NCBI GenBank assembly: GCA_016702645.1
Contig: JADJDP010000013.1
Span: 20,143-84,142 of the forward strand
Direction: 5' to 3'
DNA: 64,000 nucleotides
From: Flavobacteriales bacterium
GTDB lineage: Bacteria > Bacteroidota > Bacteroidia > Flavobacteriales_F > PHOS-HE28
Under the pieces are notes generated by a model, which worked only from the letters and a program-made list of their open reading frames with translations, had not been told where the DNA came from and did no database searches. Shown here piece after piece: positions 11,371-22,561 of the stretch. The position numbers and the translations under genes are program-made. Each line of letters starts with the position of its first letter. The stretch's first letter is position 1.

Positions 11371-12132
11371 TCACGAACACACCGGTCTGAAGTTGATGAC
11401 GGTGGCATCCGTTGGTGATGCCAAGCTCACGATATGCTGCTCGTTGAGGTGCCATGTGCGCACATGGTATTCTTCAGCCGCCATCTTCACGAAGGCCTCG
11501 TGTTCGATCGTCATCACGTTGTGCTCACCGTCCACGCGCAACACCCGCAGATCGTCCATGATACCAACGCCGCTTGCCTTGAGCACGGATTCCTTGCGTG
11601 TCCAGAACTGGAGGAAGCGTCGTTTCGCATGGGGTCCCGCTGCCTGTATGACAGCGATCTCCGGTGCGGTGAAGTAGTGTTCGCTCACGGCAGCATGGTC
11701 CACGTCCCGCGCCATGGTCTCTATGTCCACGCCGATCTCCACCCCCGTCGTGAAGCCGACCAGGATGGCATCCTTCGTATCGCTGAAATTGAAGCAAAGT
11801 CTTTTTCGATCGAGGTAGGGCTTGCCAAAGGCGCCGCGTGAGAAGCGTATCAACGAGCCATCCCGCTTCAGGTACCGGCCCAATAGTTCGCGCAGCACAC
11901 CATGGCCCAGGATGAAGCGTTCACGATCCTGCTTGAAGCGGAATCGTTGCGCACGTTCGGTCTCGACGGGGTCGAGCAGGTCGCGATAGAAGGCCGTTCG
12001 TGGCCGCAGTTGTTCCAGCGTGGCGAACCAGAGGTGCACCATCCCCTCGGCAGGTGGTTCCACCGGCGCGGCATCGTTCCATGTCACATCTTGCGGACCG
12101 CTGCAATGCACGGTCAAAGTGCGTCCTTCCAC
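11371..12132 (-). CDS. Sfp-type 4'-phosphopantetheinyl transferase
   Basis: GAFGKPYL, FNFSDTKD, GVDIE and FWTRKESVLKASG motifs. Lies immediately downstream of the NRPS-PKS genes. Confidence 0.85.
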   Translation of the reverse strand: MEGRTLTVHCSGPQDVTWNDAAPVEPPAEGMVHLWFATLEQLRPRTAFYRDLLDPVETERAQRFRFKQDRERFILGHGVLRELLGRYLKRDGSLIRFSRGAFGKPYLDRKRLCFNFSDTKDAILVGFTTGVEIGVDIETMARDVDHAAVSEHYFTAPEIAVIQAAGPHAKRRFLQFWTRKESVLKASGVGIMDDLRVLRVDGEHNVMTIEHEAFVKMAAEEYHVRTWHLNEQHIVSLASPTDATVINFRPVCS

Positions 12133-12188
12133 GGAGCTAAGGAACAGGATCCGCGTTGATCAATGAATGTCGATGGAAGCGGACGACC

Positions 12189-19000: not shown

Positions 19001-22000
19001 CGAGTTCCTTGCTGAACAGCGTGCAGCAGTGATCGAAGTTCTCCGCGAAGACCGGCTCGCTGACATGCAGGTCGCGGCCCATGTTCACGTACTGCGAACC
19101 CTGGCCGGGGAACATGAAGACCACGCCGGGCGCGGCTTCGTGCAGTTCGCGTGTGCCGATCAGGTTGGTGTCCTTGTTGGCGATCGCTTCGATCACTTCA
19201 CCGGGACTTCCGCCAACGATCAGGCGACGATGCTTGAAATGACGACGACCCACCTGAAGCGTGAAGGCCGCATCAGCGAGCGATGCGTTCGGGTGTGCTT
19301 CGAGCCACGCGCGGAGGTTCTCCGTCATGGCATCGAGCGAGGTCTTGCTCTTCGCGCTGAACAGGAACAGTTGCTTGCTACGCGATGCACTCGACGCGGA
19401 CATCACTGGTGGCTCAGCGAGGATCACGTGGGCGTTCGTTCCACCCACACCGAAGGAGGAAACACCTGCGATGCGAGGCGTACCACTACGCGGCCAAGCG
19501 ATGTTCTCGTTCGCAACTCGGAAGGGTGAATTGGCAAAGTCGATCGCGGGGTTCGGCGTCTCGAAGCCGATGTTGGAAGGGATCACCTCCTCCTTCAGTG
19601 CCCACGCTGTCTTTATCACACCTGCTGCACCTGCGGCCGGCGTCAGGTGACCGATATTGCTCTTGATCGAGCCGATGACGCAATGATGGCCGTTGGTCTT
19701 GCCGCCGAATGCGAGCGTCAATGCTTCCACCTCGATCGGATCACCGAGCGGCGTGGCTGTACCGTGCGCCTCTACATACGTGATCTGATCGGGCGTAACG
19801 CCTGCATCGGCTTGCGCCATGGCGATCACTTCGGCCTGGCCGCGCACGCTGGGTGCGGTGAAGCTGGCCTTGTCGCTACCGTCGTTGTTGAGGGCCGCGC
19901 CTTTGATCGTGGCGTAGATGTGATCGTTGTCGCGGATGGCATCGTCGAGGCGCTTCAGCACGATGATGCCGACACCATCGCTGAAGCTGGTGCCTTTGCC
20001 TTGCGCGTCGAAGGTGCGTGTGCTGCCGTCGGGGCTGTACATGCCCGCCTTCGTTGTACACGATGCCGCTGTTGATCGGTGCCGTGATCGCGATGCCACC
20101 GGCCAGGGCCATGTCGCATTCACCATCGCGCAGCGCCTTGAACGCTTGTGCGATCGCAACGAGCGATGTGCTGCACGCCGTATGGATGCTCAACGCCGGA
20201 CCGCGCAGATCGAACTCGAACGCGAGACGTGTGGCGATGTAGTCCTTCTCGTTCGCGGTCATCACCGCGAAGTCGCCGACCTGCTCGATGAGCTCCGGAT
20301 GGCCGATGACGTTGCGCGTGAAGTAGGTGTTGTTGCCCATGCCGGCATACACGCCGATGAGGCCAGCGAACTGTGCGGGATCGTACGCGGCATCTTCCAA
20401 AGCGGCCCAGGCCGTTTCCAGGAAGACGCGTTGCTGCGGATCCATCAGCGCGGCCACTTTCGGGTTCACGCCGAAGAAGCCCGCGTCGAATTTGTCGGCA
20501 TCGGTGATCACGCCGCGCGCCTTCACGTAGTCGCTGTCGTTGCGCAGCTCGGCGGGAACGCTTGGGTCGATCTCGTCAGCGGTCCACGTGCTGATGCTGT
20601 TCTTCTTGGCGAGCAGGTTCTTCCAAAGCTCTTCCACGCTGGCAGCGCCGGGGAAGCGGCCGCTCATGCCGATGATGGCGACGTCGCCCTTCTTCGCTCC
20701 ACCAGCCGCCGCCTTACGTGCCTTGGCCATTTCGGACGGAGCGATCGCGCTTGCATCACCTTCCAGGTAGGCGGCGCACGCCTTGACCGTAGGGTGCTGG
20801 TATAGCTTCACGATCGGCAGCTTCAGGCCGTGGCCTTCGAGTTGAGCTACCGCATTGGATGCTCAGCAACGAGTTGCCGCCGAGATCGAAGAAGTTGTCG
20901 TCGATCCCAACACGGTCGATGCCGAGGAGATCGGCCCACACGTTCGCGAGCGCCTTCTGCACACCGGTCTGCGGCGCTGCGAAAGCGACATCCAGTTCGG
21001 GGCGTTTCACATCGGGTGCGGGCAGTGCCTTGCGATCGATCTTGCCGCTCGGAGTGCGTGGCAACTCTTTCACCGCCACGAATGCGGAAGGCACCATGTA
21101 ATCGGGAAGGAGGGAGGCGAGGTGCTTGCGCAGGTCGTTCACGCTCGCATCATGCTTCGCGACGTAATAGCCGATGAGACGCTTCAGGCCGGGACGGTCC
21201 TCGCGCACGTTGGCAACGGCTTGTTCAATGGAAGCGTGCTTTTCCAACGCCACTTCCACTTCACCGAGTTCGATGCGATAGCCGCGCACCTTCACCTGGC
21301 CATCGATGCGGCCTTTGTAGTCGATCTCGCCGTTCGATAATTCAGCGGCGCGATCACCGGTCTTGTAAAGTCGTCCGCCTTTCTCGAATGGATCGGCGAG
21401 GAAGCGCTCGGCCGTGAGGTCGTCGCGACCGATGTAGCCTTTTGCCACGCACGCACCGCCGAGATAGAGCTCGCCTTCATCGCCCTTCTTCACGGGCTTC
21501 ATCTGCTCATCGAGCACCAGCAACTTCACATTGTCGATGGCCTTGCCGATGTTCGGCAGCGCAGGCCAGCTCGAAGGATCGCCCTTCAGTTCCAGTTCGC
21601 TCACCACATGTCCTTCGGTCGGTCCGTACTGGTTGCAGAAGCGGCAGCCGGGCAACTGCTTGAAGAAGTTCGCGACGGCTGGTGTGATCTTCAACTGCTC
21701 GCCGCTGGTGAAGACCTCTTTCAATGAAGAAGGCACTTCACCCGTGCGTTCCACGGCTTCAGCCAGATATTGCAGCGCTACGAAGGGCACGATGATCCGG
21801 TTGATCTTCTCCGCGATGATCTTGCGCAGGAGTTGTGTACTGTTCAGTCGATCCTCGTCGGTGATCAGCACGAGCGTGCCGCCTTGAGCAAACGTGGTGA
21901 AGAGTTCTTGGAAACTCACGTCGAAGCTGATGGGGGCGAACTGCAACGTGCGATCGCCTTCCTTCAACACCGATGTGCGCAGTTGCCACTGGATCAGGTT

Positions 22001-22561
22001 CAGCAAGGGCGCGTGGTGCATGGCCACGCCTTTCGGTCGGCCGGTGCTTCCGCTGGTGAAGAGCACGTAGGCCAAATTCTCCGGCTTGGCTGGGCACTCG
22101 CCTTCGAAGCGTGGACCGTTCTCCAGATCGACCTCATCGATCAACAGGACCTTCGTCTTGCTGCCTTTGAAAAGGTGTTGGTGCGCCCGGTCGGTGATCA
22201 CCACCGGCGGTTGGGCGTCCTCCAACATCAGGGCAATGCGATCGGCGGGGTAGGCGGGGTCGATGGGTACATAGGCAGCGCCCGCTTTCACGATGCCGAG
22301 CACACTGATGACCAGTCCGGGGGAACGTTCCAGGCAAAGGCCGGTGGTGCTCCCTGCAATTACCCCGTTCTTGGCGAGGTGGGCGGCCATGCGGTCCATG
22401 CGCTGCCCTAGCTGGTCAAAGGTCAGTTCCCCATTGTCCGCAACAAGGGCGGTGCGTCCTGCCTGTGCGGCGAACGCTGGTTGAAGGAGTTGGATCAGGT
22501 TGAATGGATGGGATGTCTTACCGGGCATGGAACTGGTCATTGGAATACGTAGCCGCTCCAC
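16053..22561 (-). CDS. hybrid NRPS-PKS A-PCP-KS-AT-ACP-aminotransferase; frame broken twice (ORFs 20756..22561, 19876..20811, 16053..20159)
   Basis: A domain FTSGSTGRPKGV, FDVS, NQYGPTE, YKTGD and PSGKIDRKAL. PCP FFDLGGNSL. KS TACSTS, EAHGTAT and KSNIGH. AT GHSIGE and HAFHS. ACP LEMGLDSL. Class III PLP aminotransferase DEVITGFR and TYGKVIGGG. Confidence 0.9.

Follow-up and report, generated by a model that had tools for sequence, protein, structure and literature searches.

A probable orphan family of hybrid NRPS-PKS clusters with an in-line aminotransferase, encountered as a damaged copy in a Flavobacteriales bacterium

Results

We analyzed a 64,000-nucleotide stretch of contig JADJDP010000013.1 (positions 20,143 to 84,142, forward strand; assembly GCA_016702645.1) from a Flavobacteriales bacterium of the PHOS-HE28 lineage, hereafter called the window. 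Its positions 11371-22561 carry, on the minus strand, a gene cluster that combines nonribosomal peptide synthetase (NRPS) and polyketide synthase (PKS) domains, and we applied a Pfam profile search to the minus-strand open reading frames (ORFs) of this region, six of which are long. The domain order is adenylation (A), peptidyl carrier protein (PCP), ketosynthase (KS), acyltransferase (AT), acyl carrier protein (ACP), and aminotransferase (AMT) for gene 1, then condensation (C), A, PCP, and thioesterase (TE) for gene 2, and then an Sfp-type 4'-phosphopantetheinyl transferase (PPTase) for gene 3, exactly as an initial annotation of this DNA had proposed. Chance ORFs were ruled out because the Pfam E values are so low (down to 1e-88) and the homologues so many (hundreds). 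On balance, we favor reading the region as a three-gene hybrid NRPS-PKS line that belongs to a large orphan family and whose two large genes are both damaged in this copy.

The first of the six minus-strand ORFs (20756-22561) encodes AMP-binding (2e-74), AMP-binding_C, and a truncated PP-binding domain. It is followed by an ORF with the N-terminal ketoacyl-synt domain (19876-20811; 4e-57) and by one that carries Ketoacyl-synt_C, the KS-AT linker, Acyl_transf_1 (4e-53), PP-binding, and Aminotran_3 (2e-49) (16053-20159). Further downstream, the ORF at 13949-16042 holds Condensation (1e-87) together with the first third of AMP-binding, from its N terminus (profile positions 1-111), the C-terminal part of AMP-binding (profile positions 265-384) lies with AMP-binding_C, PP-binding, and Thioesterase at 12189-14015, and the last ORF (11371-12132) encodes ACPS and AASDHPPT_N.

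Gene 1 (16053..22561, minus strand) was delimited as a hybrid NRPS-PKS gene by Pfam, by full-length homologues, and by tblastn with the homologue from L001 (related loci are designated L and related proteins P). Residues 5-2152 of the L001 protein align to the window across three reading frames. Intact homologues measure 2,150-2,190 aa, and the true start is probably an ATG at ~22528-22540. Asp235, Lys517, and a code of the amino-acid type mark the A1 domain (21041..22471; AMP-binding and AMP-binding_C) as a canonical A domain for amino acids, and both Pfam and the matches in the Protein Data Bank (PDB) agree with the initial annotation that such a domain, and not a fatty acyl ligase, is the loader. 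Next come the PCP1 carrier (20770..20953; FFDLGGNSL), placed with the L001 alignment because its PP-binding match is cut at profile position 36, and the KS domain (19563..20685; ketoacyl-synt and Ketoacyl-synt_C), with TACSTS, EAHGTAT, and KSNIGH. The AT domain (18264..19121; Acyl_transf_1) contains the GHSIGE and HAFHS motifs that had been assigned to it, and the ACP domain (17751..17954; PP-binding, 5e-11) contains GLDSL. The AMT, an in-line class III amine transferase dependent on pyridoxal 5'-phosphate (PLP), occupies 16251..17591, as found by Pfam Aminotran_3 and by phmmer against the PDB. The ~65 aa that follow it (16056..16250) align to the AMT-C linker of fused relatives; in P0247, the alignment extends to query position 511, inside a 3,955-aa protein. 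As judged from the alignment, this C-terminal tail probably docks or links the gene 1 product to the gene 2 C domain.

Gene 2 (12189..16042, minus strand), an NRPS termination module identified by Pfam and by tblastn with L001 gene 2, begins 10 nt downstream of gene 1, C domain first. The C domain (14672..15973; Condensation, 1e-87; HHAVCDGWS) is followed by the A2 domain (13224..14575), which matches profile positions 1-111 and 265-384 only, the PCP2 carrier (12945..13136; PP-binding, 1e-14; FFDLGGHSL), and the TE domain (12255..12776; Thioesterase, 8e-21; GYSFGG and GDH). Intact gene 2 homologues measure ~1,314-1,340 aa, and the window copy is ~38 codons shorter and frameshifted. Gene 3 (11371..12132, minus strand) has the features of an Sfp-type PPTase, namely, ACPS (PF01648), an N-terminal AASDHPPT-like half (AASDHPPT_N, PF22624), and the W..KE(S/A) motif in the form WTRKESVLKA. 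In accordance with the initial annotation, the cluster in this window contains no gene for tailoring, regulation, or export. A natural fusion of genes 1 and 2 is found in P0247 from Spirosoma utsteinense, a 3,955-aa protein with the order A-PCP-KS-AT-ACP-AMT-C-A(MT)-PCP-TE (MT, methyltransferase), and a close relative, P0405, occurs in S. pollinicola, whose fused gene has the accession WP_100987165. This single-protein form indicates that genes 1 and 2 function as one line, in that order.

We then compared the active sites with those of known enzymes. In the phmmer search, the AMT matched the structure of the MycA amine-transferase domain (6KFM/6KFU) over residues 4-450 with an E value of 1e-122, versus only 1e-51 for the best stand-alone glutamate-1-semialdehyde (GSA) aminomutase, and therefore groups with the AMT domains of assembly lines more closely than with aminotransferases that stand alone. 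It is ~50% identical to the MycA domain, and its TYGKVIGGG motif aligns with TYGKIIGGG of MycA, which places the PLP lysine; the motif is kept in 56 of 56 homologues. The class III PLP domain lies downstream of KS-AT-ACP on the same polypeptide, and a C domain follows it directly, at the start of gene 2 here and fused to the AMT in Spirosoma. By homology, the AMT is of the MycA type, as initially proposed, and is predicted to convert a beta-ketone into a beta-amine.

HAFHS in an AT domain is a signature of malonyl-CoA, and both GHSIGE and HAFHS are kept in 56/56 homologues. The Cys-His-His triad of the KS is present (Cys in TACSTS, His in EAHGTAT and in KSNIGH), as are GLDSL in the ACP, HHxxxDG in the C domain, and GxSxG plus GDH in the TE. 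The catalytic residues of KS, AT, ACP, AMT, C, PCP, and TE are conserved among homologues. Every motif that the initial annotation had quoted, from TACSTS to GYSFGG and including FDVS and PSGKIDRK, occurs in the translations. Its statement that all catalytic motifs are visible does not hold for A2, from which the A3 motif is deleted, as described below.

The search for the same gene trio in related genomes that had been recommended with the initial annotation returned 155 loci in a scan of GTDB species representatives, corresponding to ~150 species. The carriers are nearly all metagenome-assembled genomes (MAGs) of uncultured Flavobacteriales that come from activated sludge and lakes; a few are Verrucomicrobiota, which match at 68%. 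An intact version of the trio lies at 1,041-1,053 kb of CP064979. At least 120 full-length gene 1 homologues with 79-93% identity were present among the matches listed. Related loci run from gene 1 through gene 2, then an optional type II thioesterase that forms a fourth gene in some relatives, and the PPTase to a convergent PIF1 helicase, and the PPTase occupies the same position in nearly all of them. The trio was also found in cultured Spongiivirga sp. MCCC 1A20706 (L085) and in cultured Ampullimonas aquatilis (L084); in the latter, the PPTase comes first, followed by gene 1, C-A-PCP, and a hydrolase of its own. The cluster is thus a widespread, strongly conserved family and no rare oddity. 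As to the neighbors in these two cultured bacteria, dlt-like sets, in which an AMP-binding ligase is accompanied by a small carrier protein and MBOAT, stand on both flanks of the trio in L085 (1-9000 and 21478-25586), and in L084 the trio adjoins Polysacc_synt and glycosyltransferase genes; this may reflect a link to the cell envelope or may be coincidence.

Conservation differs between the parts of the cluster. The median amino acid identity to the window is 87-89% for the KS, AT, and AMT of gene 1, compared with 70% for CoaD, 65% for RsmD, 62-73% for the PIF1 helicase, 59-66% for gene 2, and 53% for the PPTase. Gene 1, with a ratio of nonsynonymous to synonymous substitution rates (dN/dS) of 0.05-0.10, is unusually constrained, above the neighboring housekeeping genes. 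Gene 2 and its code are the variable part of the cluster, and the termination step is naturally varied. The gene 2 A codes in the family include DALWLGGTFK, DAFLVGAVIK, DAFLLGIFSK, DALTMGGVMK, and the Gly-like DILALGMIWK; L008, L077, and L081 contain a tandem pair of C-A-PCP-TE genes, each with its own TE; gene 2 of L033 is bimodular (C-A-PCP-C-A-PCP-TE); and in L071 gene 2 is absent, the PPTase coming directly after gene 1. Between the window and L083 (GCA_964267735.1), the closest relative found, dS is 0.04-0.16 in the flanks, 0.27-0.39 in gene 1, and 0.47-0.80 in gene 2, whereas the pattern is reversed against distant genomes, gene 1 dS lying below flank dS. This discordance between cluster and flanks suggests that cluster alleles were exchanged between lineages by recombination.

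Lesions in the window copy were called against the intact L001 locus, whose gene 1 is 93% identical, and against L083, whose DNA is 90-96% identical to window positions 4566-26032. We found four of them, all minus strand in coding sense and within 10.4 kb. Frameshift 1 (20851..20857) is one extra base relative to L001 and L083, just past the PCP1 serine. Frameshift 2 (20044..20046) is an extra C in a plus-strand C run (coding GGC-GGG-CATG) within KS. At frameshift 3 (14058..14062, at ~14060), within A2, one base present in L001 and L083 is missing. Because these three 1-nt indels split gene 1 (two) and gene 2 (one), neither large gene is open as sequenced. The fourth lesion is a contiguous in-frame deletion of 114 nt (38 codons) with its junction at 14169/14170, seen against L083 as a break between blastn high-scoring segment pairs; the comparison with L001 reveals the same loss. 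The deleted stretch takes out the A3 P-loop motif of A2 (YTSGSTGxPKG): the 114 unmatched L083 bases at the break encode this motif, which is kept in 58/58 complete gene 2 homologues. The window A2 accordingly lacks the ATP-binding A3 motif of a functional adenylation domain. We searched a set of 5.8 billion proteins for an intact gene 2 of the same species, and none was found among the matches listed, which are mostly ≤1,100 aa; the nearest gene 2 relative among them, P0122 (94% identity), lies on the error-rich contig L083.

Several irregularities were also observed around the cluster. The PIF1/RecD-like helicase gene (9857-11367, plus strand) is broken at ~10720 into a part with AAA_30/PIF1 and a part with UvrD_C_2; it is a single gene of 487-501 aa in L001 and L002, and almost all related loci have it in convergent orientation to the cluster. 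An AhpC-TSA/thioredoxin-like gene (6510-8004, minus strand), which is one gene of ~498 aa in L001 and L083, is split at ~6956, where 2 nt of a C run present in L083 are deleted. Positions 2116-3010 form a ~900-bp tract of nearly pure G/C (95-100% G+C), rich in long runs of G and devoid of ORF structure, which looks like a basecalling or assembly artifact. On the other side of the cluster, a 1,687-aa ORF (22696-27759, plus strand), divergent to it and free of Pfam matches, contains ~25 Cys-rich repeats of ~35 aa (TGxDxW..CxC). Since the L002 neighbors at this position carry TSP_3 and Por_Secre_tail, it is probably a surface protein secreted by the type IX secretion system (T9SS). Beyond it, two overlapping long ORFs of 714 and 950 aa with thrombospondin type 3 repeats (28620-33532, plus strand) may be one frameshifted giant surface protein.

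For the three single-base lesions, poor consensus in a long-read metagenome assembly is the likely cause, because the flanking genes are frameshifted too and a G/C-only tract lies nearby. L083 gene 1 is itself broken into at least 8 ORFs, at other sites and sharing none of the window's indels, and sporadic breaks also occur in several other long-read "tig" MAGs. For the 114-nt A3 deletion, we rate a real allele and an artifact about equally likely; in the former case, this strain's module 2 would be unable to adenylate.

The strongest competing explanation is that the window carries genuine decaying pseudogenes, with all four lesions real and the metabolite no longer made. Four independent lesions in 10.4 kb would fit such decay, as would a clean deletion of exactly 38 codons, unlike typical homopolymer errors, and L071, which is without gene 2, indicates that loss does happen within the clade. 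However, the flanking housekeeping-type genes show a similar indel density (PIF1 at ~10720, AhpC-TSA-like at ~6956), the closest relative carries a different and larger set of breaks, at least one lesion falls in a homopolymer run, and the artifact-like G/C-only tract is on the same contig. In addition, both genes have a dN/dS of 0.05-0.10 when the window is compared with L083, a value that mostly reflects the history before any inactivation. We therefore regard decay of this copy as the less probable explanation, though one to be taken seriously, and pseudogenization limited to the cluster is weakened by the frameshifted flanking genes and by the different breaks in the nearest relative. Under the reading that we favor, a family line with a damaged copy here, the consensus quality of the contig is poor and its gene calls cannot be trusted without polishing. 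Given the three frameshifts and the loss of A3, the functional prediction of the initial annotation can be applied to relatives that are intact but not safely to the copy in the window.

In order to predict the substrates of the line, we extracted specificity codes against a GrsA fragment, with the register verified on 1AMU. The Stachelhaus code of A1 in the window is DVQIFSQVVK, which is also found in 44/56 intact homologues, with DVQFFSQVVK in six more. As read from these residues, the A1 code is proline-like: the pattern D-V-Q...V-V-K (D235/V236/Q239 and V330/V331/K517) is the proline hallmark. Published Pro codes comprise DVQFVSQVMK (telomycin Tem22), DVQFVAQVVK, DVQYVAHVVK, and DVQYIAHVVK (PMC9113097), and the A1 code agrees with that of telomycin at 7/10 positions, including the unusual S301/Q322 (PMC9113097). 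Among divergent representatives (≤50% identity) that share the six-domain architecture, 22/38 have DVQ-type codes, including the canonical Pro codes DVQFIAHVVK and DVQYIAHVVK, and the top PDB matches of A1 to single domains include TycB module 1 (Pro). The predicted starter of gene 1 is thereby narrowed to proline or a close analogue, and with a proline starter the "gamma-amine" of a beta,gamma-diamino unit would be the pyrrolidine ring nitrogen.

The A1 pocket, nearly invariant elsewhere in the family, is swapped in a few relatives: L040 has DFWNIGMVHK, a classical code for Thr, the code of L058 resembles those for Val, and L057 has DVLIFGQVFK.

A second explanation keeps the architecture and has A1 load something else (pipecolate, a proline derivative, or a residue of another kind), in which case the product class would differ. 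DVQIFSQVVK is 3-4/10 positions away from every characterized Pro code cited, and the same scaffold occurs with Thr-, Val-, and Ser-type codes (L040 and L058; P0299 and P0317). Such a starter nevertheless appears unlikely in view of the proline hallmark at the six positions, the S301/Q322 pair that is also present in the telomycin Pro domain, and the gradual transition, inside one protein family, to canonical Pro codes. The starter retained in what follows is proline or a near analogue. The A2 code, DALWLGGTFK, is one residue from DAFWLGGTFK, which is listed for Val (PMC9113097), and it is predicted to be Val-like. Positions 330/331 of A2 come out as TF or FT depending on gap placement in the pairwise extraction, and the ungapped register from GPTE was adopted.

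Discussion

Modules with an in-line aminotransferase occur in several characterized pathways, with which the cluster shares individual traits. It resembles MycA/ItuA (mycosubtilin/iturin, Bacillus) in having KS-(AT)-ACP, an in-line class III PLP amine transferase, and then C-A-PCP, and the AMTs are clear homologues. The MycA/ItuA proteins differ in that a FAAL (fatty acyl-AMP ligase) primes with a long-chain fatty acid, whereas here a Pro-like amino acid is predicted on A-PCP. They also hold C-A-PCP in the same protein, as part of a heptapeptide lipopeptide line, whereas here a second protein carries it and the line stops after a single residue. Where the iturin family loads a fatty acid through FAAL and ACP and continues with a seven-residue NRPS, the cluster has an amino-acid A domain at the N terminus and one C-A-PCP-TE module (two in a few relatives).

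McyE/NdaF (microcystin/nodularin) and the cyanobacterial FAAL-PKS-AMT starters (puwainaphycin, microginin) likewise place a PKS module with an embedded aminotransferase before an NRPS condensation. Their AMT modules follow polyketide or fatty-acyl chains; none is known to be primed by an amino acid on A-PCP or to be a two-module line, both of which are traits of this cluster. Because it contains no fatty acyl-AMP ligase, upstream PKS, or long NRPS, the cluster falls outside the MycA/ItuA and McyE pathways. SwnK, the fungal swainsonine synthase, is a single A-T-KS-AT-...-T megasynthase with a cyclic imino acid (pipecolate) as primer and one malonyl extension, which makes it similar, but it is fungal, has a KR (ketoreductase) and reductase release, and is not known to have an aminotransferase or a second NRPS module.

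A parallel for the priming logic is the detoxin/rimosamide-like (DRL) signature NRPS/PKS hybrid, for example PipC, which combines an A domain for Pro, one malonyl extension, KR, and a TauD-type hydroxylase (PMC12828459). A Pro loaded by an A domain, one malonyl extension at the KS module, further amino acids, and TE release would be common to both systems (PMC12828459). In DRL pathways, KR gives a beta-hydroxyl (detoxinine), and TauD and acyl tailoring follow, whereas here an AMT stands at the reductive position, KR and TauD are absent, and there are no tailoring genes.

That the cluster belongs to one of these characterized pathways (iturin/mycosubtilin, microcystin/nodularin, microginin/puwainaphycin, or detoxin/rimosamide) is very improbable: an AMT ~50% identical to that of MycA and a Pro-plus-malonate logic that resembles the detoxin/rimosamide signature enzyme (PMC12828459) are outweighed by the lack of a FAAL, of upstream PKS modules, and of a heptapeptide NRPS, by an AMT in place of the detoxin/rimosamide KR with no TauD gene, and by an activated-sludge survey of biosynthetic gene clusters (BGCs) without MIBiG relatives (PMC9765116). 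Membership of the iturin, microcystin, or detoxin family was rejected after their defining features had been looked for and found absent.

The survey in question, of long-read MAGs from Danish activated sludge, reported that NRPS-PKS clusters are concentrated in Flavobacteriales and that no BGC clustered with MIBiG (PMC9765116). Our literature searches, together with that survey, yielded no characterized product or pathway with the exact architecture, consistent with the initial annotation, which had recognized no characterized counterpart. The accessible part of the survey of embedded PLP domains by Milano et al. (2013; PMC3870968) does not describe an A-PCP-KS-AT-ACP-AMT architecture.

By analogy with MycA and with the Pro-plus-malonate logic of the detoxin/rimosamide enzymes, we infer the following pathway. 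The PPTase encoded by gene 3 would prime the three carrier domains, and A1 would load L-proline or a close cyclic analogue onto PCP1. The KS would condense this residue with malonyl-ACP supplied by the HAFH-type AT, giving 3-oxo-3-(pyrrolidin-2-yl)propanoyl-S-ACP, and the MycA-type PLP domain would turn the beta-ketone into a beta-amine, giving 3-amino-3-(pyrrolidin-2-yl)propanoyl-S-ACP. The C domain of gene 2 would then couple the beta-aminoacyl thioester to the residue loaded by A2 onto PCP2, which would be Val-like in the window and another hydrophobic residue or Gly in relatives. Finally, the TE would free a small di-basic pseudo-tripeptide, either as a linear acid by hydrolysis or possibly as a seven-membered lactam. 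For the Pro/Val version, the linear form would be C12H23N3O3 ([M+H]+ 258.181) and the cyclized form C12H21N3O2 ([M+H]+ 240.171).

Several points weigh against this reading of the cluster. The 114-nt deletion is clean and exactly in frame, unlike the usual long-read error, and may be a real inactivating allele. A-domain codes are predictive, and pipecolate, hydroxy- or methyl-proline, or another substrate is possible because DVQIFSQVVK is identical to no characterized Pro code. The absence of a characterized relative comes from the literature and one survey, not from a direct MIBiG or antiSMASH comparison. The chemistry of the whole family is predicted from domain content and homologies, and TE release may be either hydrolysis or cyclization.

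To our knowledge, embedded aminotransferase domains are known almost only from lipopeptide and toxin lines primed by fatty acids or polyketides. The new element here is an amino-acid-primed, two-module NRPS-PKS with an in-line AMT, and the cluster is among the most conserved loci of an uncultured Flavobacteriales clade that is common in activated sludge and lakes. If the inferred chemistry is true, the family would represent a small-molecule scaffold that is new and whose second residue varies combinatorially in nature. We tentatively suggest, as a possibility below even chance, that the trio makes an undescribed class of di-basic pseudo-peptides in which a constant 3-amino-3-(pyrrolidin-2-yl)propanoyl unit is joined to a variable hydrophobic residue, and that this class has a core ecological or physiological role. 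Such a role, in bacteria abundant in wastewater and lakes, is possible because gene 1 is steadier than housekeeping genes across ~150 uncultured Flavobacteriales species and turns up again in three phyla. Direct tests are feasible, since the trio or its fused form is present in cultured Spirosoma, Spongiivirga, and Ampullimonas. If this suggestion is correct, detoxinine would have its beta-amino counterpart in the constant unit, possible roles of the compound would include those of an aminopeptidase inhibitor with an N-terminal beta-amino acid (compare bestatin and microginin), a signal, or a metal ligand, and the swappable termination module would tune the compound between species.

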